From positions 120,112 through 184,111 of the IMG/VR virus record IMGVR_UViG_3300037755_000305: a stretch of DNA of 64,000 bases; one strand, written 5' to 3'. Position 1 is the stretch's first letter. Each line of letters begins with the position of its first letter. The notes under the pieces are model-generated. The model saw only the letters and a program-made list of their open reading frames with translations, did not search any database and had not been told where the DNA came from. The DNA is from a virus. Both the position numbers and the translations under genes were made by a program. Positions 39,791 through 62,949 of this stretch are shown here, piece after piece.

Positions 39791-39860
<70 letters not shown>

Positions 39861-42999: not shown

Positions 43000-43057
43000 T
43001 GTATCCAATATATAAGCACCAGAAAAATTTCGTGATGCGCACAAGCTCTTTAGTGTA

Positions 43058-48871: not shown

Positions 48872-48948
48872 TGGTAGCGGAAGAGGGATTCGAACCCCCG
48901 GTCTCAAGGTTATGAGCCTTGCGAGATACCTGACTTCTCCATTCCGCG
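48872..48948 (-). tRNA. tRNA-fMet(CAT)
   Basis: CGCGG 5' end with C1:U72 mismatch; CAT anticodon; CCA. Confidence 0.88.
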
Positions 48949-49369
48949 TCAATCTAATGTATAGATAACCACTTAGTGTGGTTTTTCTGTAGCTCCTTTA
49001 GCAAAGGAAACGAAAACAAAAGGCTCTGGGGTGAGGTTTGAGACCGGTCGGGTTTTATCCGAGTGCTCTGTGTCTATCGAGCACCTAACCGAGGAGTCCA
49101 CTACGTCCCCGCCCACAATGGAGGCTCATCGCCGCCCACCCCAGAGTTTATCGAAGTTCCGTGTCTGCGACGCTAACGTGGCGATAATCGCCGTCGTTTT
49201 CTTTGACGCCCCATACGAAGCGTCGCTTGCCGCCGCCAATCATGATGCGAATCACTTGCTCATCCGTTCCTTTCAGGAACCGGCTGCGCTGTCCGCCCTT
49301 CATGCCTGCATTCTGATTTCTTGTCTTTGCACCTGCCATCGTATTTTCCTTCTTTCCTCGTCCTTTAGT

Positions 49370-49816
49370 CTAGGTTAGAACACACACTACAAAGTTCAGG
49401 CGAATGTCCTTCTCGATCTCCAACAACACCGGAACCACATCCTCTTCCCAATCTAGTCCTCCGAGACCACAGCCGATTCTGGGAATGTAAACTTTGTCCA
49501 AATCTCGATTTAGGGCTTCGTAAGCTGCCGCAGCAAGAGACATTTTGACAGCCTTGAGAGAAGCGTAACACTGTCCGTCTCGACCGTAATCAGATTGAGT
49601 GAAACAATTGGCTACCACCAGTCCGTCCTCGACCTCTACAAACTGAGTATCTCCCAGCCGCATTGATCCTTCTCTGTGGTACATGGCCTTTACTGTGGGC
49701 CATTTCATGTAAATGGCACGGGCCACTCCACTCCCCATCGCGTTTTTGGTGTTAACACCATGAGCGATGAGGGCGGGGGATTGTACTGTCGTGATGTCTT
49801 TCTCAAGATAAAACAT
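49370..49816 (-). CDS. Macrodomain (ADP-ribose processing) protein
   Basis: IAHGVN...MGSGVA...ANCFTQ...IPRIGCGLGGLDW. Confidence 0.9.
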   Translation of the reverse strand: MFYLEKDITTVQSPALIAHGVNTKNAMGSGVARAIYMKWPTVKAMYHREGSMRLGDTQFVEVEDGLVVANCFTQSDYGRDGQCYASLKAVKMSLAAAAYEALNRDLDKVYIPRIGCGLGGLDWEEDVVPVLLEIEKDIRLNFVVCVLT

Positions 49817-49904
49817 TAGAACCTGAGATATTCTCCGCCATCTTCTTCTTCGTCCCAACCCGGAGCGAGTCTGTGTCGCTCTTCGGGCAATTCGTCGTCC
49901 TCGT

Positions 49905-50627
49905 CTAAAGAGAGAGCTTCGGCTTGATCGTTTCCGTCCGCTTGTTCAAGCGGAGCTTCTTTATCTCCTTCTTCGAAAGGGCCTTCTTCTCGATGGGGTA
50001 GTAGTACGTGTACTTCTGGGTATGCCAGTACCCGCTCCAGCCCTGCCAGCGCCTTTCCTTCTCTTCCGACCCGATCTCCACTCGGAACCACGCCCCATTC
50101 AGCTTGTGGTACTCCACAGTGTCCGACTCGCGGTAGTAGTGATAGACTTTCTTCTTCGGCTTGTAGCTCTCGCCTTCGCTCTTGCACAGTATACCTGCCT
50201 CGTTTACATACACGCATCGTCCGTAACAAGAGCCCGGAGAAAACCAGTCCTCGGCACGAAAAGAGGTTTCCCCACTGTGGGGAATACCGCCAACCATCTG
50301 CTTAACGTGATCCTTGATGTGCGCAGCCTGAAGAGAGTTTCCCTTCAAAACTTTGCAGATATCTGACCAAACATCGTTCCAGGGCTCGCCCACCTTAGAG
50401 AAAAGGTACCCTTCCAAAGGTCCGAGCAAATCCGAGAACCTTTTCTCATAACCGTTTACAACGTGCTTCTTCCTCATGGACTCGAACTTCGGGCGCAAGT
50501 CCACGTCCACACCCTTGAAAACTCTCTTCTCTCGGGGCTTGGATGCCCTTTCGTAGGTCTTCCGAGGGCCACCCTTACCACCGGAACGGGGGCGCTCGAT
50601 CACGACCTTGTTCATGTCGTCTCTCAT
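49905..50627 (-). CDS. Hypothetical basic protein
   Basis: AGGAG RBS; long ORF. Confidence 0.65.
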   Translation of the reverse strand: MRDDMNKVVIERPRSGGKGGPRKTYERASKPREKRVFKGVDVDLRPKFESMRKKHVVNGYEKRFSDLLGPLEGYLFSKVGEPWNDVWSDICKVLKGNSLQAAHIKDHVKQMVGGIPHSGETSFRAEDWFSPGSCYGRCVYVNEAGILCKSEGESYKPKKKVYHYYRESDTVEYHKLNGAWFRVEIGSEEKERRWQGWSGYWHTQKYTYYYPIEKKALSKKEIKKLRLNKRTETIKPKLSL

Positions 50628-50737
50628 GACAATTCTCCTGTTTGGTGCGTTAGGCACCTAAATAGTGAACCGCATGATGCTCTCCTTCAATGTTCATTAT
50701 GTCATTCCCTCTGCGTCGTTCTTGGATGCTGTCACCC

Positions 50738-50764
50738 TCTTCGGTCGTTCTAGCGAAAACTTTA
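50738..50764 (-). promoter_or_regulatory. sigma28-type promoter
   Basis: TAAA-N15-ACCGAAGA. Confidence 0.6.
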
Positions 50765-50771
50765 GCAAAAG

Positions 50772-50849
50772 TGGAGCTTACGGAGGGATTCGAACCCACA
50801 GCCTGCTCATTACGAAAGAGCCGCTCTATCCAGTTGGAGCTACGTAAGC
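50772..50849 (-). tRNA. tRNA-Thr(CGT)
   Basis: Cloverleaf, CCA. Confidence 0.88.
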
Positions 50850-51073
50850 AAATTATCTCTCGCAGTATTTTTCACCAGCCCTGCGAGTCCGGCCGCGACG
50901 CCTTTGGGTTCTTTCAGCTAGAACGCCTTCGGCCGCTGAATATGACGCAGTGGACATTCTAGATTGCCCTAAACCATTACCGGAGTCGAACCGGAATTCC
51001 CGGGAACGTACCATACTGGACCTGCGTACTACTTGTAATTCTTACCATAGGAGCCCGCGCCAACGCTGGAATG

Positions 51074-51446
51074 TCAGCTTTGCTCTGCCGCCTCTTCGGC
51101 GCGGACCTGGGCTCGAAGCGCTTCCACTTCCACTTCCAGCTTCGCCAGCCGATAGGCTGCGCTTTGTAAGTTTGTGCCTTCCAAATACACCTTGGTGGTT
51201 TCGGGGAACTTGGGAATAGTCGTGAGAGATTTACAGAACCACAAACAACCTGGTGACTTCGGGAAACTTGGGAATAGTCGTGAGAGCTTCGCAGTCTCTC
51301 AGGCTCACCCAGGTAGCCTTGGGGAAATTGGGAACAGTCGTGAGAGATTCGCAGCCTCCCAGATCCACCATGGTAGCCTGTTTTGCGGCTTCCAATTGTT
51401 CTTTAGAAAGTTCAGTGACGTTAGGGTCGTGCAGTTCGAAAAACAT
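51074..51446 (-). pseudogene. Leucine-rich-repeat protein with frameshift near 51240
   Basis: 20-aa repeats (LxxCxxLTTxPxFP; about 60-bp tandem units) continue in another frame after the TAA at 51231. Confidence 0.7.
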
Positions 51447-51472
51447 TTTAATACTACCTACTTGTGGTTTAG

Positions 51473-51748
51473 TTAGCCTTCATCCGACGTATCCGACGAG
51501 ATGCATGTGTTTCTTCGCTGTTGCCAACACGCTTTAACCCTGTCGTCGCAAGAATCACGCTGTTGAGACAATTGCTCGTTACAATCGCTTCTTTGGTCAC
51601 TCACCTGTTCAAAGCACTGTTGAACTACTCCGTCGCAAGCATTTATCGCCCCGGAAGTTTCCGCCTTGTGGGTCATGAAGGACCCGCCACTGGCTGCCAT
51701 GAGAGCCGTTGCAATAATCGTGCCCATAGTCTTGGCGTCAATCTCCAT
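51473..51748 (-). CDS. Membrane-anchored Cys-rich coiled-coil protein
   Basis: N-terminal hydrophobic segment; C-x(6-10) repeats. Confidence 0.55.
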   Translation of the reverse strand: MEIDAKTMGTIIATALMAASGGSFMTHKAETSGAINACDGVVQQCFEQVSDQRSDCNEQLSQQRDSCDDRVKACWQQRRNTCISSDTSDEG

Positions 51749-51767
51749 TTCTTTCTCCCGAACTATG

Positions 51768-51842
51768 TGGAGCTGCCGGTGGGGATCGAACCCACGATCT
51801 CCGCCTTACCGGGGCGGTGCTTTACCACTAAGCCACGACAGC
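51768..51842 (-). tRNA. tRNA-Thr(GGT)
   Basis: Cloverleaf; atypical C33. Confidence 0.88.
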
Positions 51843-51857
51843 CATAACAGGGCAAAT

Positions 51858-52199
51858 TTACTGTCCCTGACACAAATTTTTGAAATTCTCTAAATCGGTA
51901 GCAGAGGATTCAATCCACCGCCCAGATTCAATAACTTCTCCAGAAGAATCTCTTATTACGCACCGAGCCATAATTGTAGAACCAGGAATCACTAAAAGTT
52001 TTGTACAAAAATCTCCGTGTCCTGGATAAAAACTATGTTCTTCTCCGTCTAAACTGGTCCATAAATACTCTATTTCAGAACATTTTTCATCAACGGTTAA
52101 AGGTTGATAAACATTAAAAGGATACTCTGGGACAGGTTCTACTCCTGTCCCAGAGCAGCCTATAATTGTTACAAAAACAGATAGTAGTAGATTACGCAT
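51858..52199 (-). CDS. Putative lipoprotein
   Basis: Signal peptide with IIG-C. Confidence 0.6.
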   Translation of the reverse strand: MRNLLLSVFVTIIGCSGTGVEPVPEYPFNVYQPLTVDEKCSEIEYLWTSLDGEEHSFYPGHGDFCTKLLVIPGSTIMARCVIRDSSGEVIESGRWIESSATDLENFKNLCQGQ

Positions 52200-52209
52200 C
52201 TATTACTGA

Positions 52210-52623
52210 TTACGGCTTTAGAAGAATGGGTTGACCCGGAGCCATGTCAGATGGGAAAATAATCTGAACATTGCTAGTTTCGGAAACCAATCCATCCAAT
52301 GTACACGAAGCAGCACCATTACCAACACCATCTCGTGGAACGTTGTAAGAATGGAAGGTGCCTGGGGCTCCTGTTAACTCTTCACGTCCAATTTCTTCTC
52401 CGTCACTGTTTGTGAATACTACAGAACAGGATAGAATCTTTACGTCTGGAATAGCCACACCGTTACTGTCAGATACCGGAAAACAGATTGCACCAGAACC
52501 TTCTGAAAGATCAAGAAGCTGTTGTGGGGTAACCCCATCACATTCCGTATCCAAAGCGCTAGCCGATGCAGCTAGTAAACAAATAAAAAGAGAGAAAAGA
52601 CCAATCTGACCAAGCTTATTCAT
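52210..52623 (-). CDS. Secreted beta-rich protein
   Basis: Signal peptide; AGGAG RBS. Confidence 0.6.
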   Translation of the reverse strand: MNKLGQIGLFSLFICLLAASASALDTECDGVTPQQLLDLSEGSGAICFPVSDSNGVAIPDVKILSCSVVFTNSDGEEIGREELTGAPGTFHSYNVPRDGVGNGAASCTLDGLVSETSNVQIIFPSDMAPGQPILLKP

Positions 52624-52653
52624 TCTGTACTCCTGTATTCCTGTTGTTGAATT

Positions 52654-52728
52654 TGGAGCGGAAGAAGGGGTTCGAACCCTCGGCCTCAACGTTGGCAACG
52701 TCGCGCTCTACCACTGAGCTACATCCGC
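52654..52728 (-). tRNA. tRNA-Gly(GCC)
   Basis: Cloverleaf, U73, CCA. Confidence 0.93.
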
Positions 52729-52819
52729 AAATCTTAAGGAAGTCCGCAAGATTGATAAGCTGTTTTCCACTTACCCCGACACTTGCGGACCATCAAGCTG
52801 CGCATCGAAACCGCCTGCT

Positions 52820-53107
52820 CTATCCTTCGTATGTTCTTTCCCAATCCTTTTTGGAGATCCCGTTAGGGTGCTCTCCTGTCTCTTTTATCGCCTCCCTGAT
52901 GGCGTATTCGTTGCAGGCTTCCAGCATCTCTGCTGTAGGTTGAACACTGTTCTTTTCCAGACAGTCCATGAATTCGGCTGCTGATTCTCCAGCCAGCTTC
53001 AAGCTGCCGTCTTCCTGAACCCATTCGTGCGGGACTGCTGTTCCCACTCCCATAAGAACTTTCTTCCACCACGGGGCTGAAAGAATTTCGGCTGCTCTAG
53101 AAGACAT
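52820..53107 (-). CDS. Hypothetical protein
   Basis: GGAGG RBS. Confidence 0.55.
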   Translation of the reverse strand: MSSRAAEILSAPWWKKVLMGVGTAVPHEWVQEDGSLKLAGESAAEFMDCLEKNSVQPTAEMLEACNEYAIREAIKETGEHPNGISKKDWERTYEG

Positions 53108-53125
53108 GTTGACCTCCGGCATATG

Positions 53126-53201
53126 TGGTACGGGTGGAGGGATTCGAACCCCCGGCCACCTCCGTGTAAAGGAGGCACTCTAGCCACTGAGTTACACCCG
53201 T
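53126..53201 (-). tRNA. tRNA-Val(TAC)
   Basis: Cloverleaf, CCA. Confidence 0.93.
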
Positions 53202-53207
53202 ATAATT

Positions 53208-53537
53208 CTACTTTAGTGCGCCTGGGACCGTCCATACGTCTGCGGGTGGATGCCCTTCAGGATATAGCCGAACCTTCACAATGTTCTCGTCTCCGCTCAA
53301 AATTTCGGCTCGCATATCACCCTTCATTGGGGCGCACCCCTTTTCAGTCGTGTAGAAGTATAGGATAAACTCATCCTGCTCCACAAGGGCTCGCACGAAA
53401 TTGATGAAAGTCTTTGGGCCACCTTCAGCTAGGCATGCAGGCCAACCCCTTTTTGTCGTCTTTGCTTCTCCTGCGCTGGCAACTCCTGCCAGTACCAACA
53501 CCATGATCGCGATTGCGATCGTAACCAGATTCTTCAT
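53208..53537 (-). CDS. Secreted hypothetical protein
   Basis: Signal peptide; GGGGAG RBS. Confidence 0.6.
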   Translation of the reverse strand: MKNLVTIAIAIMVLVLAGVASAGEAKTTKRGWPACLAEGGPKTFINFVRALVEQDEFILYFYTTEKGCAPMKGDMRAEILSGDENIVKVRLYPEGHPPADVWTVPGALK

Positions 53538-53573
53538 TGTGATCTCCCCGAGGGGAGGATTTGTTGTTCTCCC

Positions 53574-53981
53574 CTAAGAAGAGATAATGTAGCTTGCCGC
53601 TTTAAGCAGATTCTCCTCACTGTCCTTGAACGCACCCTGACCTGTATTGCAGTTTGTACACAAAAGACCTCGAATCTTTTTTTTTCGTTGTGTGGCAATG
53701 GTCTACAAAAGGCGTTCCTTCGAACTCCCGTTCACATATTTTACACTTGTTTCTTGGCACTCTCGTAGTTCATCAAACTGTTCGAGGGTCATACCGTATT
53801 TGAACTGCAAGCTGTGTTTTCTGTTTTTCTGTCCATTGGTTGTTTTGTGTGCCTTTCTTTTGTCATTGTAGCAAGTCTTTGAACAGTATTTAGCTCCTCC
53901 GGCTCTAACCTTTATAGACAAAGCCATAAAGCTTTCTGTACACCACCCGCATGCTACCTTTTCTCGTTTTCCTCTTGTCAT
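53574..53981 (-). pseudogene. Endonuclease VII-like homing endonuclease with two frameshifts
   Basis: KYGMTLEQF, CKIC...VDHCH and IRGLLCTNCN...GAFKDS fall in shifted frames; one shift lies in a 9-A run. Confidence 0.8.
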
Positions 53982-53985
53982 AAAA

Positions 53986-54063
53986 TGGTAGTCCTGGCGG
54001 GATTTGAACCCGCGACCTCCCGCTTATAAGACGGATGCTCTAACCAGACTGAGCTACAGGACC
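53986..54063 (-). tRNA. tRNA-Ile(TAT)
   Basis: TCCGT-CT-TAT-AA-GCGGG; A73; CCA. Confidence 0.9.
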
Positions 54064-54111
54064 AAAAAAATTTGATCCCGATATGAGATAGTCCATCACT
54101 TCGTCTCCAAA

Positions 54112-54186
54112 TGGTACTCCCGAACGGTTTCGATCCGTCTTCTCCAGCTTGAAAGGCTGGGGTCCTAGCCATTAGACGACGGGAGC
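54112..54186 (-). tRNA. tRNA-Glu(TTC)
   Basis: Cloverleaf, CCA. Confidence 0.9.
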
Positions 54187-54377
54187 ATATCCTTTACGCG
54201 GCTTTCCGCCGCTTTCAAAATGTCTTCTTTTTCTCTATCGGTCAACTTGTACCAATTCTTTAGCTCTTCTTTCTCCAAAAGGCAACCTGTGCAGTGGGTC
54301 ATGTTTTCATCCCACCCACACTCTCTGGCACAGGGTCTAAGAATTTCTTTCTTTGTCTCGTTCGTGCAATTCATCAA
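54165..54377 (-). CDS. DUF1289-like Cys protein
   Basis: RPCAREC...CTGC...ELKNWYKLTDREK. Confidence 0.7.
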   Translation of the reverse strand: MMNCTNETKKEILRPCARECGWDENMTHCTGCLLEKEELKNWYKLTDREKEDILKAAESRVKDMLPSSNG

Positions 54378-54889
54378 GCTTCGCCGCTATGATTTCGCCC
54401 AGGATCTTCGCACCTCGCTCGATCCCCTCTATCGTCGCTGCCGCTGTCTTGTCGCTCAGCTTCTCCAGTGCTTTCTCTATTGCATCCGTTCCAAACATTG
54501 GCGCTCCTAGAAGGATTCGAACCTTCGACCTGCTCTTTAGGAAAAAGCTGCTCTGTCCCCTGAGCTACAGGAGCGTAAATTTTGTGCCACTCTTGTTCTG
54601 CCTCCGGACTGGATTTCGGTTCTTCTTCGTTTTTGCGTCCTGATCCGCCGCAAGTTCCACAACGATCATCTTCTTCAATGAAATCTTTGTGTCCAGACCC
54701 CTCGCAATAGTTACAGTCTTCCTCTTCGTCCACCAGGGGACCAAGTCCACCGCCCATTATACAGTCGTATTTTTCATTTTCAGAAATCAGCCTATCTACC
54801 AGATCATCTACTTCGTTTTCTTCCCAATCCGACCCGTCTTCTTTCTCGAAGAGTAGAGTAGCTTTAATGTACCGGCCGTATATGCTCAT
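54374..54889 (-). CDS. Hypothetical protein with DnaJ-type CxxCxGxG repeats
   Basis: CNYCEGSG and CGTCGGSG; the 3' part of the ORF runs through tRNA-Arg(CCT). Confidence 0.5.
   Translation of the reverse strand: MSIYGRYIKATLLFEKEDGSDWEENEVDDLVDRLISENEKYDCIMGGGLGPLVDEEEDCNYCEGSGHKDFIEEDDRCGTCGGSGRKNEEEPKSSPEAEQEWHKIYAPVAQGTEQLFPKEQVEGSNPSRSANVWNGCNRESTGEAERQDSGSDDRGDRARCEDPGRNHSGEA
54499..54574 (-). tRNA. tRNA-Arg(CCT)
   Basis: Cloverleaf, CCA. Confidence 0.9.
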
Positions 54890-54898
54890 CTCGGTCTG

Positions 54899-55246
54899 CT
54901 AGAAGCCGGTCTTTTCGAAATTAGACATTTTCTTCGCCTTCGCCTTCTGGTCCTTGATAGCTGCACGGCGGTTGTTCATCGAGTCGAACTGTTGCTTTGG
55001 TGTCGTCTGGCGCGGAACCCTATCGAGGGACCTCAGGTAGTCGATAATCGAGACTTCCGCCAGATCCCGATCTGCCATAAGCTCCCCAATCTTCTCCGCA
55101 ACCGCTACTAGTATCTGATCCTTTTCATCTGTCGAAAACAAGCTTGCAAATTCTGCGAAGAATTGGATCGTAAGTAGGGGTCCTTCGTCTCCATCGTCAA
55201 TTCTCAGATCTCCGTTGATCTGCCTTACTGCGTGAATGTCTACCAT
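54899..55246 (-). CDS. Hypothetical protein
   Basis: GGAG RBS; C-terminal RRAAIKDQKAK. Confidence 0.55.
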   Translation of the reverse strand: MVDIHAVRQINGDLRIDDGDEGPLLTIQFFAEFASLFSTDEKDQILVAVAEKIGELMADRDLAEVSIIDYLRSLDRVPRQTTPKQQFDSMNNRRAAIKDQKAKAKKMSNFEKTGF

Positions 55247-55262
55247 CCAAATCTCCAAATGG

Positions 55263-55342
55263 TGGCACCCCCAGCAGGGATCGAACCTGCATGCGTCCAA
55301 TTACCCTTTCTACTGTTTAGAAGACAGAGGGGATATGGGGGC
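55263..55342 (-). tRNA. Non-canonical tRNA-Arg(TCT) lacking a D-arm
   Basis: Acceptor GCCCCCA/TGGGGGT; TATCCCCT linker; CTGT-CT-TCT-AA-ACAG; long 3' linker; normal T-arm; CCA. Confidence 0.7.
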
Positions 55343-55401
55343 AAACTGAATCTACATATGTATTATATAGTAAATATGTAGATTCGAAAGAGGTAAAATA
55401 C

Positions 55402-55878
55402 ATGAATTCCTGTAAAAATTGTGACAACCCAACCAAAAACGCCAAATTTTGCAGCATATCTTGTGCAAATAGCAAAAAACCTAAAAGGAAAAGAACCACA
55501 TCATTCTACAAATGTTCCAATGTAGGTTGTACCAACAAACCTTTGTTACGAAGAAAATATTGCTCTTCCCCGGAATGCCAACCAAATTATGTCGATTGGT
55601 CAAAAGAAACTTTAGCTTCAGTCAAAGAAAAAAGAAAATATCAAATTTACTCTCGCATACGAACTCTATCTAGAAAAATTTATCTTCGTTCGGATAAGCC
55701 TAAAAAGTGCATAATTTGTGCCTACGCTATACATTTCGATGTATGTCATATCAGAGGAATATCTACTTTTCCAGATACCGCCACAGTAAAAGAGATCAAT
55801 AGTCCAGACAATCTTATTGCTTTATGTAAAAATCATCACTGGGAATTTGATAACGGATTTCTGTCACTAGAGCCATAA
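55402..55878 (+). mobile_element. HNH homing endonuclease, antisense to the tRNA array
   Basis: GAGG RBS; CKNC, FCSISC; CIIC...DVCHI...NLIALCKNHHWEFD; AT-rich. Confidence 0.9.
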
Positions 55879-55911
55879 ACCGCGTGCTCTGTCCAGTTGA
55901 GCTAAGGGGCC
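55878..55911 (-). pseudogene. Orphan 5' half of an Arg-type tRNA
   Basis: GGCCCCT-TA-GCTC-AACTGGACA-GAGC-A-CGCGG-TT, broken at the anticodon by the HNH stop region. Confidence 0.7.
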
Positions 55912-56208
55912 TCAAACCTGATAGTAGATAAGATATCCTTCTGCTTCTTTATCATACTCGTATGTCTTCTTCTCCTTATCTCCGCTGACCTTGTACAGGG
56001 TGATGCTAACCTCATGGTTCGGCACCCCGTTATGCACGTCCAGGTCATGATAGTGCTTTTTTCCGTCCAAGTCAATGAACCAAGCTTTCTTTTGCGGTGG
56101 AAGACCAGCCAACAAGCGTTCGTGGTTTGTGATGGACTCGTTCACACGATCACCACTTGCTTCTCCTACCTTACTGTTTCGGCCCAATACCCAGTTCAAC
56201 AGATTCAC
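55912..56208 (-). CDS. Hypothetical protein
   Basis: GGAG RBS, GTG start. Confidence 0.5.
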   Translation of the reverse strand: MNLLNWVLGRNSKVGEASGDRVNESITNHERLLAGLPPQKKAWFIDLDGKKHYHDLDVHNGVPNHEVSITLYKVSGDKEKKTYEYDKEAEGYLIYYQV

Positions 56209-56223
56209 AGATATCTCCAAAAT

Positions 56224-56301
56224 TGGTGGACAATACAGGACTCGAACCTGTGACCTCCGCCATGTCAAGGCGGCGCTCTGTCCTGACTGAGCTAATTGTC
56301 C
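56224..56301 (-). tRNA. tRNA-Val(GAC)
   Basis: Cloverleaf, CCA. Confidence 0.92.
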
Positions 56302-56472
56302 AAATGTTACATTCTCTCCTAGCTAGCGGGTGGTTCTACCATGTCCATCACCGCCTGAATTCGTCTTTGCTGCACTCCCATTTCCACTAGCTGTTCTATC
56401 ATTTCTGGCTCAAGTGTAAGGTCCATATACTCAAGCCACCACCACAGTTTGGTTCGTTCTTCTTGCTCCGCG

Positions 56473-56916
56473 TTAGGCATTGCGATACAGGTCCTCAAAA
56501 TCCGATCTTGCCATTCCTCTGAGTTCTCTAAGTTCTCTAAGGGAGAACCATTCGCTGTCCTCTTTCTTAGGACATGTTCGAGGCGTGTGCTGTTTATCTT
56601 CTTCCTCATCGTAGCAGCGAAGAGTATAGTTCACTTCTTCTCGATATTTCTCCAGTGTGAAATCTTCTTCGAATTCTAGCTGCCCTTGTGCCGGGAACTC
56701 TTCATCCCACAGTAGCTTGGACTCTTCCATGGTAGAAAACAAACTGTCTGAGGCTTCTTCAAATGTCTCAAATAGATCAGTGTACTCCAAATCGAACCCT
56801 ACTGGCTCGTCAATCTCGACATATGAATTATGGACGTTCATGACGGTTACCCGAATGACAATTGGGTAACCATCATGAACGAACCAAGCCTTGTCTCCTA
56901 TCTCAGGATATTTCAT
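56473..56916 (-). CDS. Hypothetical protein
   Basis: MKYPEIGDKAWF...; SH3-like start. Confidence 0.5.
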   Translation of the reverse strand: MKYPEIGDKAWFVHDGYPIVIRVTVMNVHNSYVEIDEPVGFDLEYTDLFETFEEASDSLFSTMEESKLLWDEEFPAQGQLEFEEDFTLEKYREEVNYTLRCYDEEEDKQHTPRTCPKKEDSEWFSLRELRELRGMARSDFEDLYRNA

Positions 56917-56993
56917 GGCACCGCCGAAGGGACTCGAACCCCCAAACCTTTGCGTTCGAAGCGCACTGCTCTATCCAATTGAGCTACGGCGGC
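56916..56993 (-). tRNA. tRNA-Arg(TCG)
   Basis: Cloverleaf, A20, CCA. Confidence 0.92.
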
Positions 56994-56998
56994 ACATA

Positions 56999-57544
56999 TT
57001 ACCTCTTTGACCGTTTCCCTGCCTTCTTGTTTGCCTTTCTTTTGCTGCGGCGAACTGAAGAAGAATCGTTTTTCCCGTTTACAGCATGGTCTGCAACGTG
57101 AGAAGCTGCCCAAGCATCCGGCTTCAAAACAGCCTTGAATCCGCTACCAACAACCATACCAGCTAGCTGCTGGTGATACTTGCCTGAATTCCACTGGATG
57201 TTTGTGTTGGCATCGACGTGAACCTGAATCTGTTCTGCCTCGATGTGCTCACAAAGAGCCTGTGCAATCTCCAAACTCAACCCTACCTCGGTGAAAAGCT
57301 TATGCTGCAAGCTGTTGATGTTGGACTCGCGAGTCTTGGTGTAGAAAACACGTCCGCCCTTTCCAGGGTTGAGCACGACCACAGCCGTGACAAAATCCAA
57401 GAACTTGCCGTGCTTTTGCGCATCGGTTCCGATGTGGACCGGGCGAGATTCCCCGGCATTTAGCTCTGCAATTGAGGCGCAAATATCCTCTACCGGAGAC
57501 TTGTGCAAGGTAAGCCACTGCTTGTCTAGGATGCTGCCACTCAT
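56999..57544 (-). CDS. RNase H-like nuclease, YkuK/DUF458 family
   Basis: HIGTDAQ...FVTAVVV...GKGG..FY...EVGLSLEIA...HVDAN...KPDAWAASHVAD. Confidence 0.85.
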   Translation of the reverse strand: MSGSILDKQWLTLHKSPVEDICASIAELNAGESRPVHIGTDAQKHGKFLDFVTAVVVLNPGKGGRVFYTKTRESNINSLQHKLFTEVGLSLEIAQALCEHIEAEQIQVHVDANTNIQWNSGKYHQQLAGMVVGSGFKAVLKPDAWAASHVADHAVNGKNDSSSVRRSKRKANKKAGKRSKR

Positions 57545-57561
57545 GGTACATCTCCTTTAGG

Positions 57562-58158
57562 TTAACTGGCAGGTCGCCGAAGAATCGAACTCCGCTGCTG
57601 GGTTTTGGAGACCCTGCTGATCCCAGATCGCGACCTATAATACTCCAGCAAATGTGTGCCCACAATAGCGGCATCTGCTTTTTCGTGAATGTCTCTAAAA
57701 GACTTTATAAAACTAGCTTGACACAGCCACCCAGGAAACACATTTCTAGCTTCTTCAAAAGTTGCCGACTTTGTGCCTCCGTTTTTCAGGTCTCTTGCAT
57801 TCCACACTACTTTTAATGATTTGTCCAGATCATTTATCTCATCCAAAGAATTTGGTTCTATCATGACTTTATGTAGAAACCTATTTGCCGGTAATCTACC
57901 TACTACCAATACAGACGTTGCTCCGCAATTCAAAGCCTGTTGTACTTCTTCGTCTGTGGCATGAATACCTTTAGCTAAAACAGGTTTCGTGGATATATCA
58001 CAAGCTTTTTTCAACAACTCAAAAGATCCGCCCCACCTTTCATCTGTATGAATTGAAACCATGTCTCCTATTTTTTGGGCTATCTTGAAAAGATGTTCCC
58101 ATGAATGCGTAGAAGTGTATCCAAAGGGAGAGCAGGTTTTCACTTCAGTTATCAACAT
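57562..58158 (-). CDS. Indole-3-glycerol phosphate synthase (TrpC)-like TIM barrel
   Basis: ITEVKTCSP, VSIHTDERWGGS, PVLAKG, GATSVLVV; shorter than canonical IGPS. Confidence 0.65.
   Translation of the reverse strand: MLITEVKTCSPFGYTSTHSWEHLFKIAQKIGDMVSIHTDERWGGSFELLKKACDISTKPVLAKGIHATDEEVQQALNCGATSVLVVGRLPANRFLHKVMIEPNSLDEINDLDKSLKVVWNARDLKNGGTKSATFEEARNVFPGWLCQASFIKSFRDIHEKADAAIVGTHLLEYYRSRSGISRVSKTQQRSSILRRPAS
57567..57636 (-). tRNA. tRNA-Trp(CCA), short D-arm
   Basis: GGGT-CT-CCA-AA-ACCC; G73; CCA; 70 nt. Confidence 0.85.
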
Positions 58159-58189
58159 GATATCGCCCTATTTTTATCACTGGTCTAAA

Positions 58190-58286
58190 ATCACCGGCGT
58201 ACTCAGCGACCGCCTGTCGCGGTCTATGTCATTATACGACAGGGCCCGTAGGGTCCCGACGGGAATCCAACCCGCGTCTCCGGATC
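58190..58286 (-). ncRNA. Permuted/degenerate Asp/Glu-type tRNA-like element with hairpin insertion
   Basis: The 3' half (TCCGG, GCGGG-TTGGATT-CCCGT, CGGGACC) precedes the 5' half (GGCCCTG-TC-GTA...TAC-G-CCGG). Confidence 0.45.
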
Positions 58287-58288
58287 GC

Positions 58289-58365
58289 TGGCACGGCTGA
58301 TAGGATTCGAACCTACAATCTCTGCCTTCGCAGGGCAGGGCTTTCTCCAATTAAGCTACAGCCGT
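58289..58365 (-). tRNA. tRNA-Arg(GCG)
   Basis: CTGCC-CT-GCG-AA-GGCAG; CCA. Confidence 0.9.
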
Positions 58366-58370
58366 ATGTG

Positions 58371-58400
58371 TGGTGGAGACGGTCGGAATCGAACGCCCCC
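58371..58400 (-). pseudogene. 30-nt Ala acceptor microhelix (internally deleted tRNA-Ala)
   Basis: GGGGGCG-TTCGATTCCGAC-CGTCTCC-ACCA; G3:U70. Confidence 0.7.
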
Positions 58401-58422
58401 TAATATGTCCTTTCCTTCAAAG

Positions 58423-58495
58423 TGGTCCAAGGGGCAAGACTCGCACCTGCATTTCCGAGAATTCTCTCGGCGTCCTACGGTTAGACGACCCCGGG
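58423..58495 (-). pseudogene. Degenerate tRNA (6-nt anticodon loop AGAATT)
   Basis: Acceptor, D and T arms and CCA present; anticodon loop abnormal. Confidence 0.6.
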
Positions 58496-58550
58496 ATATT
58501 TCTGGCGAGCAGGTAACCGGACAGATCTCTGTCCAAAACTCGCCGTAATG

Positions 58551-58626
58551 TGGTTGGGGAGGAGGGAATCGAACCCTCTACCTCCGATTTATCAGATCGG
58601 CTATCTAACCAATGATATACACCCCA
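58551..58626 (-). tRNA. tRNA-Ile(GAT)
   Basis: Cloverleaf, CCA. Confidence 0.9.
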
Positions 58627-58645
58627 ATAAGTCCTTTCAAACTTG

Positions 58646-58720
58646 TGGTACTCCCGAACGGTTTCGATCCGTCTTCTCCGCCTTGAGAGGGCAGTATTCT
58701 AGCCAGTAAACTACGGGAGC
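58646..58720 (-). tRNA. tRNA-Glu(CTC)
   Basis: Cloverleaf, CCA; paralog of Glu(TTC). Confidence 0.9.
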
Positions 58721-58726
58721 GTAGTA

Positions 58727-58801
58727 TGGAGCCTCCACTCGGAATCGAACCGAGATCCTCTGAGTACAAAACAGAAATTCTAGCCATTGAACTATAGAGG
58801 C
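58727..58801 (-). tRNA. tRNA-Thr(TGT)
   Basis: TCTGT-TT-TGT-AC-TCAGA; G1-C72, C2-G71; CCA. Confidence 0.8.
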
Positions 58802-58807
58802 AAAATA

Positions 58808-58883
58808 TGGAGCACCATGTCGGGTTCGAACCGACCGCCTTCTGGGTGGAAGCCAGACGCTCTACCAAATGAGCTAATGGTGC
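58808..58883 (-). tRNA. tRNA-Gly(TCC)
   Basis: Cloverleaf, U73, CCA. Confidence 0.92.
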
Positions 58884-58889
58884 ATTATG

Positions 58890-58965
58890 TGGTGGAGACA
58901 GAGGGAATCCAACCCTCCTCAGCCGCATTGCAAGTGCAGCTCGCCCGCTTGGAACATGTGCCCCC
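58890..58965 (-). tRNA. tRNA-Ala(TGC)
   Basis: G3:U70; TGC anticodon; CCA. Confidence 0.88.
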
Positions 58966-58984
58966 TAATTTCCTTCCGTGTAAC

Positions 58985-59059
58985 TGGTTGCGACGGGTGG
59001 AATCGAACCACCGACATAGGGCTTATGAAACCCCTGTTCTACCCCTGAACTACGCCGCA
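58985..59059 (-). tRNA. tRNA-Met(CAT) (elongator or Ile2 type unresolved)
   Basis: Cloverleaf, CAT anticodon, CCA. Confidence 0.88.
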
Positions 59060-59066
59060 TCAAACT

Positions 59067-59105
59067 AAAAAGCCCTTGTACCTTCGGTCAGGTACAAGGG
59101 CTTTT
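59067..59105 (-). terminator. Attenuator terminator ahead of tRNA block 2
   Basis: AAAAGCCCTTGTACCT-GACCGA-AGGTACAAGGGC-TTTTT; the T run ends 8 nt before tRNA-Met. Confidence 0.9.
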
Positions 59106-59127
59106 GTAAAACCTCTTTGCACCCGGA

Positions 59128-59247
59128 CTACATGCGCTCTCCGCGCATTGCCCATTCTCGACCCATACCGGCTGTGGCCGGAATGGTGCCGACGCCGATA
59201 ATTCCGGTCGTGGCAAATGCTGTCGTGTTGAATGCTATGTTGTCCAT
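59128..59247 (-). CDS. Leader peptide 2 (MDNIAFNTTAFATTGIIGVGTIPATAGMGREWAMRGERM)
   Basis: 39-codon ORF ending 22 nt before the terminator hairpin; TTGCAG-N17-TATATC promoter just upstream; composition matches block 2 tRNAs. Confidence 0.75.
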   Translation of the reverse strand: MDNIAFNTTAFATTGIIGVGTIPATAGMGREWAMRGERM

Positions 59248-59336
59248 GATGTAGATATAACACCTTCGTTCGTTCGCTGCAAGCTCTTTAGTCTATTTCT
59301 CTCAGCAGTCAAAAAAAGTCGGGCAACGGGGTCTCC

Positions 59337-59481
59337 ACTCCCCTAATGCGGTCGTTTTCATGTATCCGGGGACTCAAGGATGGACCCCACATGGCTGGTT
59401 GCCAGCGTACTCGACAGGGTGAACCTCCACCCCTCCACATGCCCTTCCGAGCCACCTCGATTTGAGGCTCCCGGCATGAAT
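59337..59481 (-). ncRNA. Candidate 6S-like rod-shaped ncRNA
   Basis: Terminal stems TTCATG/CATGAA and CCGGG/CCCGG; internal CATGTGG/CCATGTG; central bubble; CCTTGAG on the 3' strand; T run downstream. Confidence 0.35.
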
Positions 59482-59521
59482 TCTACTCTTCGGCAGAGTC
59501 AGGAGGATCTTTAGTGTTTTC

Positions 59522-59833
59522 TTAGCCAACATCCACTTTTTTAGTTCGCTTCTTTGCCCAGGTTTCATCTACAAGCCTGTGGATCGCCTCAGGATCGTCT
59601 GGAGATTCTGCCTGCCATCGGTCATGAGCTTCTAAGATATCGCTGATTGTGATGTCTTCTACACCCGCCTCAGCCAAAGAAGCCTCTATAGACACACTTT
59701 CGTTATCCAGCAAATCCGTTCCCCGGGGGAGGTATGCCATTAAGTCTTCTCGATCAGAGAACAAAGAAATAGCTTTTTGCCAGCGTTTGCGAGTAGTTCT
59801 ATCGGTATAAGGTTTGTTTGATTTACGCAACAT
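59522..59833 (-). CDS. Hypothetical protein
   Basis: Coupled to the paralog array. Confidence 0.55.
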   Translation of the reverse strand: MLRKSNKPYTDRTTRKRWQKAISLFSDREDLMAYLPRGTDLLDNESVSIEASLAEAGVEDITISDILEAHDRWQAESPDDPEAIHRLVDETWAKKRTKKVDVG

Positions 59834-62728: not shown

Positions 62729-62882
62729 ATATTATAGAAGAGAGTCCCCCGGAGTCCTGAGATTGTTTAGGTTGCTCATTTCTCTGGGGTCCTCTCTATC
62801 ACCGCCTGTCGCGGTTTTTAGTCGTCTGGTACTCGATTCCAGACCTCACAGCTACGCCATGAGCGCCCCACTGGCCGACAAA

Positions 62883-62949
62883 GCCTGAACTGGGATTTGG
62901 CCCAGATTACCGGGGTAAAAGCCCGGTGTGTTAATTACACTATTCAGAA
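62883..62949 (-). pseudogene. Degenerate tRNA with TTT anticodon
   Basis: Short D-arm; CCGGG-CT-TTT-AC-CCCGG; T-loop lacks TTC; no CCA. Confidence 0.5.

Follow-up and report, generated by a model that had tools for sequence, protein, structure and literature searches.

A leader ORF matched in amino acids to its tRNA gene block is a probable ribosome-mediated transcription attenuator in a phage genome

In the tryptophan leader (trpL) of enterobacteria, the stop codon of a short ORF is followed at once by region 2 of the transcript, and a ribosome standing at the stop masks this region. Multivalent leader-peptide attenuators are represented by thrL (Thr/Ile) and by the leaders of ilvGMEDA and ilvBN (Ile/Leu/Val). 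The pheST operon is an example of a target of leader-peptide attenuation that belongs to the translation apparatus. Leader-peptide attenuation has been described for pheM, the leader of pheST, and for pheL (PMC3082878, in the part of the source available to us). In mycobacteria, leaderless polycysteine short ORFs were found to act as attenuators, according to the available part of the report (bioRxiv 10.1101/834739). The purpose of phage tRNA genes has long been debated, the proposals in the accessible portion of the source being codon compensation and escape from tRNA-targeting defences (PMC10264068).

The locus described here lies in the final 64 kb of one 184,111-bp virus contig; this 64,000-nucleotide stretch is referred to as the window. 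The second block of tRNA genes in the window (block 2) is preceded by a short ORF and a set of RNA hairpins, together designated leader 2. Although no expression data are available, we consider it likely that leader 2 is a trp-like ribosome-mediated transcription attenuator that gates block 2 of this large, uncultured phage and senses decoding speed. The elements of leader 2 are as follows.

59280..59291, minus strand: 12-mer CTAAAGAGCTTG, common to leaders 1 and 2; two genome copies
59254..59264, minus strand: promoter-like 11-mer GGTGTTATATC, a TG-extended -10-like element; three genome copies
59128..59247, minus strand: leader-2 ORF, 39 codons plus TAG, in frame in 14 homologs with the same structural end position
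59125..59153, minus strand: hairpin P1, around the last eight codons and the stop (folds, RNAalifold consensus)
59108..59124, minus strand: region 2, the antiterminator 5' strand, starting 3 nt past the stop codon
59090..59105, minus strand: region 3, the terminator 5' arm, a strand common to the antiterminator and the terminator
59064..59083, minus strand: region 4 and U run (terminator 3' arm 59083-59068; U run 59071-59067)

Leader 2 resembles trpL in its promoter-proximal short ORF, in the position of region 2 just past the stop codon, in a region 3 common to the antiterminator and the terminator, and in a hairpin around the ORF end that could serve as a pause signal. Unlike trpL, which controls biosynthetic enzymes and senses two adjacent Trp codons, it would control tRNAs, its sensing codons are distributed over nine amino acids, it is probably leaderless, and no 1:2 pairing hides region 2. 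As in thrL and the ilvGMEDA and ilvBN leaders, codons for several amino acids would feed one termination decision; those leaders, however, use dense runs of codons for two or three amino acids and control synthesis, whereas the nine amino acids of leader 2 are sampled along the whole ORF and the targets are tRNAs. With pheM it shares the control of a component of the translation apparatus through codons cognate to the product, the target of pheM being the aminoacyl-tRNA synthetase of one amino acid and that of leader 2 a tRNA gene block. The sensing of tRNA status and an antiterminator/terminator switch placed before translation-related genes are also properties of T-box riboswitches. These are RNA-only devices which bind uncharged tRNA via a specifier codon and a T-box sequence, whereas leader 2 has a conserved ORF and does not meet the T-box criterion of a specifier loop plus a T-box sequence. 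No T-box or other Rfam cis-regulatory family was matched in 59060-59300 at E values up to 1. As far as the available part of that report describes them, the mycobacterial polycysteine ORFs are likewise leaderless short ORFs at the transcript 5' end whose codon content sets downstream expression, but they respond to one amino acid and precede cysteine-related protein genes, not tRNA genes. Leader-peptide attenuation is classical; the new elements are the tRNA-gene target, the sampling of nine amino acids over the full length of the ORF and the existence of three matched leaders. A full-text literature search found no published description of leader-peptide control of tRNA genes, an absence that is not proof.

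All tRNA genes of the window lie on the minus strand without exception. ARAGORN with default settings called 29 of them in the window, and Rfam together with low-threshold ARAGORN added Ser-TGA, Ala-TGC, Arg-TCT, Trp-CCA and two tRNA-like genes. The genes are grouped into blocks by the amino acid carried.

About 39.8-42.8 kb, minus strand: tRNA block 1, exclusively Asn, Pro, Lys, Gln and Ser
48872..59059, minus strand: tRNA block 2, Met (two), Ala, Gly (two), Thr (three), Glu (two), Ile (two), Arg (four), Trp and Val (two)
59059-58985, minus strand: tRNA-Met, the first tRNA of block 2
58890-58963, minus strand: Ala-TGC, weaker call (low-threshold ARAGORN; Rfam 28.3 bits)
55266-55342, minus strand: Arg-TCT, weaker call (Rfam 29.7 bits), degenerate with an odd D region, missed by default ARAGORN
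57568-57637, minus strand: Trp-CCA, weaker call (low-threshold ARAGORN only)
62882-62949, minus strand: tRNA-like gene of block 3, 68 nt (41.5 bits), missed by default ARAGORN
39794-39860, minus strand: second Asn-GTT-like gene, at the end of block 1 (55.2 bits), missed by default ARAGORN

Block 2 comprises 19 tRNA genes with small ORFs scattered among them, and block 3 of this genome opens with Leu and Cys and runs past the contig end. Blocks 1 and 2 have no amino acid in common, a sorting that none of 200000 random reassignments reached. That block 2 is a single transcription unit in which all 19 tRNAs are controlled by the leader is merely inferred, since the block spans 10 kb with intervening ORFs and contains one terminator-like site (52157-52123).

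Several further features were noted in and around the blocks. An abiF RNA motif (RF03085; 48603-48639, minus strand; 59.8 bits with a gathering score of 37) is located about 230 nt downstream of the final tRNA of block 2. Within block 1, between two tRNA-Pro genes, the segment 42260-42536 (minus strand) matches the bacterial class A RNase P RNA with 147.8 bits (gathering score 100); at 277 nt, compared to a model of 367 positions, it has the appearance of a truncated RNase P RNA encoded by the phage. An ORF placed between tRNAs (57562-58158, minus strand) gave a borderline indole-3-glycerol-phosphate-synthase match (26.9 bits, cutoff 27). The 3' end of this ORF overlaps the weak tRNA-Trp(CCA) call, and the homologous locus G001 has no ORF at that position.

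The minus-strand reading of 59247-59128 gives exactly the codons listed in a first-pass annotation made from the sequence alone, including the absence of AGA, AGG and GTA. The tRNAs whose anticodons had been matched to these codons are all present downstream on the same strand, 16 of them called by ARAGORN at default settings. The nine amino acids of block 2 account for 32 of the 38 residues that follow the initiator. Under standard wobble rules, block-2 tRNAs can read 30/39 codons (background 0.456; binomial P about 7e-5), compared to only 3/39 codons that match block 1. Among the 2132 small ORFs of the 184-kb genome (20-70 codons, six frames), the leader-2 ORF ranks first for block 2. The annotation had further proposed that leader 2 covers block 2 and that ATA and CGA are rare codons. 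The first of these claims holds for amino acids but not for individual isoacceptors: coverage of 15/18 anticodons is ordinary when synonymous codons are resampled at phage codon usage with the peptide fixed (P = 0.45). The second is unsupported, because each of the two codons makes up 19% of its own codon family in this phage. The codon-match signal is one of amino-acid choice, not of synonymous choice, and the attenuator criterion of codon enrichment for the product of the regulated genes is met at the amino-acid level only. Arg-TCT, Arg-CCT and Val-TAC are the block-2 tRNAs without a cognate codon in leader 2, and the AGG codon, for Arg-CCT, is also missing in 8 of the 12 homologs tallied. 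The specificity of the leader is imperfect, as six codons (Asp, Asn twice, Phe twice, Pro) specify amino acids of other blocks and the ORF of G001 carries a Ser/Gln-rich insert of 7 codons.

No close cultured relative was identified when the leader region was compared with a phage database by blastn, which matched the tRNA-Met gene only. An RNase H-like gene located within block 2 led to one 266-kb IMG/VR contig and, by way of its protein homologs, to metagenomic contigs, and a pattern scan of metagenome contigs contributed six further loci. In all, a homologous leader 2 was found at 14 distinct loci of uncultured relatives; these are related by descent and hence are not independent samples. 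The alignment with homologous loci that had been suggested as a check of the first-pass reading showed that the 14 loci keep the promoter-like motif, the in-frame ORF, the stop position, the antiterminator and the terminator. The homologous ORFs have 38-47 codons and differ in length by net multiples of three, and stops interrupt both remaining sense frames. In every homolog, 74%-87% of the residues are block-2 amino acids. The N-terminal two-thirds of the peptide is free in sequence and length, with its composition kept, and the C-terminal dozen residues are well conserved. The stop codon lies 2-4 nt before region 2, and a terminator hairpin is present in all 14 loci. In two distant relatives with unsorted tRNAs (L014 and L019), there is neither a leader nor a terminator before the tRNAs, and L019 has a plain sigma-70-like promoter in place of the leader.

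Other routes to relatives were not productive. The upstream 186-aa protein, used as a probe, gave two unrelated contigs without tRNAs, and when viral contigs were searched for exact copies of a conserved 21-mer from upstream, only the relative already found was recovered. Three candidates from the metagenome pattern scan (L022, L027 and L029) were chance matches with unrelated ORFs. The cultured Pseudomonas phage Milchi, which shares the RNase H-like gene, was rejected as a test system; it is T4-like and its tRNAs are unsorted.

The contigs of the relatives displayed a number of additional features. ORFs are inserted between the leader terminator and the first tRNA at the following sites.

L012:8416-8739: inserted ORF
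L004:about 1700-2190: inserted ORF
L012:19240-19665: inserted ORF
L003:4920-5070: inserted ORF

Two of the inserted ORFs are nuclease-like (PDDEXK_5 and, by eye, one HNH-like), and mobile elements seem to target the terminator/tRNA junction, leaving the leader intact. At L010:9635-9709, a tRNA called as Gln(TTG) occupies the slot of tRNA-Thr(TGT) elsewhere. It would be the sole breach of the amino-acid sorting and may represent an anticodon switch. Motifs resembling CTAAAG-N3-CTTG precede small genes in L003:3172-4683 and in intergenic regions of L010 and L012, with 8 matches in L003 vs 1.4 expected. In the genome under study, CTAAAG is mildly enriched (129 vs 90), and the motif may be a phage promoter or operator element. 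The flanks of L010, L012 and L016 encode a tubulin homolog and sigma-70 region-4-like, eIF-1A/IF1-like and Macro-domain proteins, and L019 encodes an RF-1-domain protein, which suggests that the relatives belong to a large-phage lineage with its own cytoskeletal and translation-related genes.

The upstream sequences reported at first pass as common to leaders 1 and 2 were recovered in a genome-wide search. The 12-mer CTAAAGAGCTTG is present in the 184-kb genome only at this site and at 43042-43053, one copy before each leader, and similar motifs were found upstream of the leaders in relatives. Since it lies 15 nt from the promoter-like motif in one leader and 21 nt in the other, it is unlikely to be a -35 element. 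The 11-mer GGTGTTATATC occurs three times in the genome, twice before leaders and once elsewhere. This third copy, at genome position 14337 (plus strand) and thus outside the window, has an ATG about 20 nt downstream and may mark another gene of the same promoter class. In agreement with the earlier description, no purine-rich Shine-Dalgarno sequence precedes the leader-2 ATG, which is separated from the preceding TTATAT by 7 nt, or by 6 nt from a TG-extended hexamer. Given this spacing, transcription is predicted to start at or next to the A of the ATG, and the leader-2 mRNA is probably leaderless. A spacing of 6-7 nt between the promoter-like motif and the start codon was found in 12 of the 14 homologs; L016, with a longer 5' region, is an exception, and L033 has GTG at the start position. 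The criterion of a short ORF following a promoter is met in that the ATG lies 6-7 nt after a conserved motif; the promoter of leader 2 is itself inferred. A rule-based consensus scan of 58900-59600 called no sigma-70 promoter at leader 2 and no terminator. We read this result as a limit of the scan rules, not as the absence of either element; the terminator is missed because its stem runs into A and U tracts. The interval from the U run to tRNA-Met is only 8 nt, too short for another promoter downstream of the terminator.

A noncoding element of about 200 nt was observed directly upstream of leader 2 (59300-59522, minus strand), with 80-85% identity in at least seven relatives. Its consensus fold contains 55 pairs, 7 of them with compensatory changes, and ends with a GC hairpin and U7. 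A search of the element against Rfam gave no match; a novel small RNA is one possible identity, and a terminator that insulates the leader promoter is another.

An intrinsic terminator, as the attenuator model requires, separates the leader ORF from the first tRNA. Segment 59105-59090 pairs with 59083-59068 to form a hairpin of 16 bp (-27.2 kcal/mol) followed by five U, as the first-pass annotation had described, and the terminator ends 8 nt before tRNA-Met, with which block 2 begins. Folding, which had been proposed to look for a structure competing with this hairpin, identified a mutually exclusive antiterminator of 15 bp in which 59124-59108 pairs with 59104-59090 around a triloop. This competitor starts 3 nt after the stop codon. 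The first-pass annotation had called the antiterminator less clear and had offered partially pairing candidates within the ORF; the fold shows for them only a 4-bp contact (59163-59160 with the terminator loop 59089-59086), and they were rejected as the main competitor. Region 2 is a near copy of the terminator 3' arm, and a transcript truncated before that arm folds as the antiterminator (-17.4 kcal/mol). The criterion of an antiterminator that has a strand in common with the terminator is met, its dependence on a ribosome being deduced from geometry. In stability, the terminator exceeds the antiterminator by about 10 kcal/mol, and the switch therefore depends on a kinetic argument for which there is no experimental test.

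A hairpin equivalent to the antiterminator was found in 14/14 homologs, with energies of -10.6 to -19.4 kcal/mol and z scores of -2.4 to -5.6 relative to shuffled region 2. Cognate pairs of region 2 and region 3 were stronger than swapped ones (-16.5 vs -14.6 kcal/mol; 19/20000 permutations). Covariation was observed between the two regions: a U-A pair is replaced by C-G in L016 and L032, L012 shows the intermediate U-G, and gains and losses of one additional C-G pair are concerted across regions 2, 3 and 4. Judged from these sequence comparisons, regions 2 and 3 co-evolve. RNAalifold applied to a MAFFT alignment yielded P1 only, because indels misalign regions 2 and 3, and per-sequence folds, shuffles and the swap test were adopted for this reason. 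The consensus P1 is built of 8 pairs and shows G-U/A-U exchanges as well as a single compensatory change. As it encloses the last eight codons and the stop, P1 accounts for the conservation of the C-terminal peptide. It is a candidate RNA polymerase pause hairpin, the pausing itself being inferred.

Matched leaders also precede the other two blocks. The leader-1 ORF (42999-42913) ranks first for block 1 among the 2132 small ORFs of the genome, and leader 1 is kept in four other loci. A third leader, of 23-24 codons, is located before an intact block 3 (His, Leu, Phe, Asp, Tyr, Cys) in relatives, at the following positions.

L010:3036-3107: leader 3
L012:3629-3703: leader 3
L016:1723-1794: leader 3
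L024: leader 3

About 57% of the leader-3 residues are His, Leu, Phe, Asp, Tyr or Cys. This leader was unknown to the first-pass annotation and played no part in framing the hypothesis. It was not found in the genome under study, whose contig stops within block 3 without terminal overlap. The fractions of own-block residues in leaders 1, 2 and 3 were 0.59, 0.81 and 0.57, compared to backgrounds of 0.26, 0.50 and 0.24, respectively, and the 3x3 matrix of leaders and blocks is strongly diagonal. The chi-square of this matrix overstates the evidence, because the homologs are related. The final five or six codons of leaders 1 and 3 contain the antiterminator strand.

The core of the first-pass reading, namely a probably leaderless ORF that mirrors the tRNA block and is coupled to an intrinsic terminator, is supported by the 14 loci, the sister leaders and the competing structure. 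Translation of the ORF, polymerase pausing, kinetic competition and the physiological trigger are inferred, in the absence of transcript or ribosome data. In the proposed mechanism, transcription would begin at or beside the ATG, and a ribosome would read the 39 codons, about 80% of which are for block-2 amino acids. Hairpin P1 probably halts the polymerase until the ribosome arrives, which would synchronise both. When decoding is fast, the ribosome would arrive at the stop close behind RNA polymerase. A ribosome with the stop codon in its A site is expected to shield roughly ten bases beyond it (about 59127-59118); this footprint would hide about the first 7 bases of region 2 (59124-59118), its inner half, and the inner part of region 3 (59096-59090) would stay free as a foothold for the terminator 3' arm. 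The 16-bp terminator would then form and the transcript would end 8 nt before tRNA-Met (off state). If the ribosome is late at any hungry codon up to about codon 37, or is absent, region 2 would be free and could capture region 3 upon its emergence, leaving the terminator 3' arm without a foothold, and the polymerase would continue into the tRNA genes (on state). Leader 2 lacks an anti-antiterminator, so that an untranslated leader should give read-through, unlike in trp. The predicted outcome is a negative feedback, in which the block is made when its own tRNA class is limiting and is turned off once the supply recovers. Poor host supply, host tRNA cleavage and phage-induced shut-off are possible triggers, which cannot be distinguished at present.

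Since the antiterminator lies after the stop codon, any delay in the ORF or a failed initiation would give read-through, and the locus could be envisaged as a translation-coupled attenuator that reports general translation capacity (ribosome availability, coupling or host shut-off), the amino-acid bias being secondary. Isoacceptor sampling no better than chance and the presence of several codons belonging to other blocks would also fit such a device. It would, however, need neither the sorting of the tRNAs by amino acid without a split nor the own-block bias, whereas the three leaders each prefer the amino acids of their own block, avoid those of the other blocks and rank first genome-wide for their own block. 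We regard a sensor of general translation capacity as unlikely on these grounds.

It is improbable, in our assessment, that the ORF is untranslated and that leader 2 is an RNA-only element (an unknown riboswitch, or a terminator that is leaky or under the control of a factor) with its frame and composition as by-products. Openness of the frame is admittedly weak evidence of translation, because two antisense frames are also mostly open, Leu and Ser codons being scarce; there is no Shine-Dalgarno sequence and no canonical promoter, and P1 constrains the 3' third of the ORF. Nevertheless, the start is fixed 6-7 nt from the promoter-like motif in 12/14 homologs, the stop is fixed before region 2, every indel preserves the frame, and no Rfam family matches the region. 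Moreover, the bias extends to the unstructured 5' two-thirds: in a hand count on the leader-2 translation, 21 of the 27 codons that precede P1 specified block-2 amino acids. The well-conserved C-terminal dozen residues of the 14 homologs could instead indicate a small functional peptide, e.g. a trans-acting or ribosome-arrest peptide, for which the hairpin is merely a terminator. Trans-acting leader peptides are known, as exemplified by peTrpL in the available part of the source (PMC7298713). Yet the C-terminal conservation coincides with P1, which has wobble and compensatory changes, the N-terminal two-thirds vary in sequence and length with a composition that is kept, and conservation of a competing hairpin would be needless for a simple terminator. 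We give the functional peptide very little credence.

Ribosome-mediated attenuation by leader 2 remains the best explanation of the locus. A considerably more tentative proposal, which we regard as possible and rather doubtful, is that the three codon-matched attenuators form an inducible counter-defence, i.e. a homeostat of tRNA supply. A given tRNA operon would stay silent until the host tRNAs of its class run low, e.g. through cleavage by host anticodon nucleases or through the shut-off of the host by the phage itself. Replacement would then be confined to those tRNAs that are being attacked, and would cease after decoding has recovered. If this were true, such a homeostat would be without a described equivalent for tRNA genes.

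The design of leader 2 is compact, about 200 nt, and could act as a decoding-speed sensor for chosen codons. If the attenuation model is correct, the phage measures the tRNA supply and tops it up on demand, separately for each amino-acid class, and leader-peptide attenuation would reach from amino-acid metabolism to the tRNA pool itself. It would also account for the sorting of tRNA genes by amino acid in these phages.
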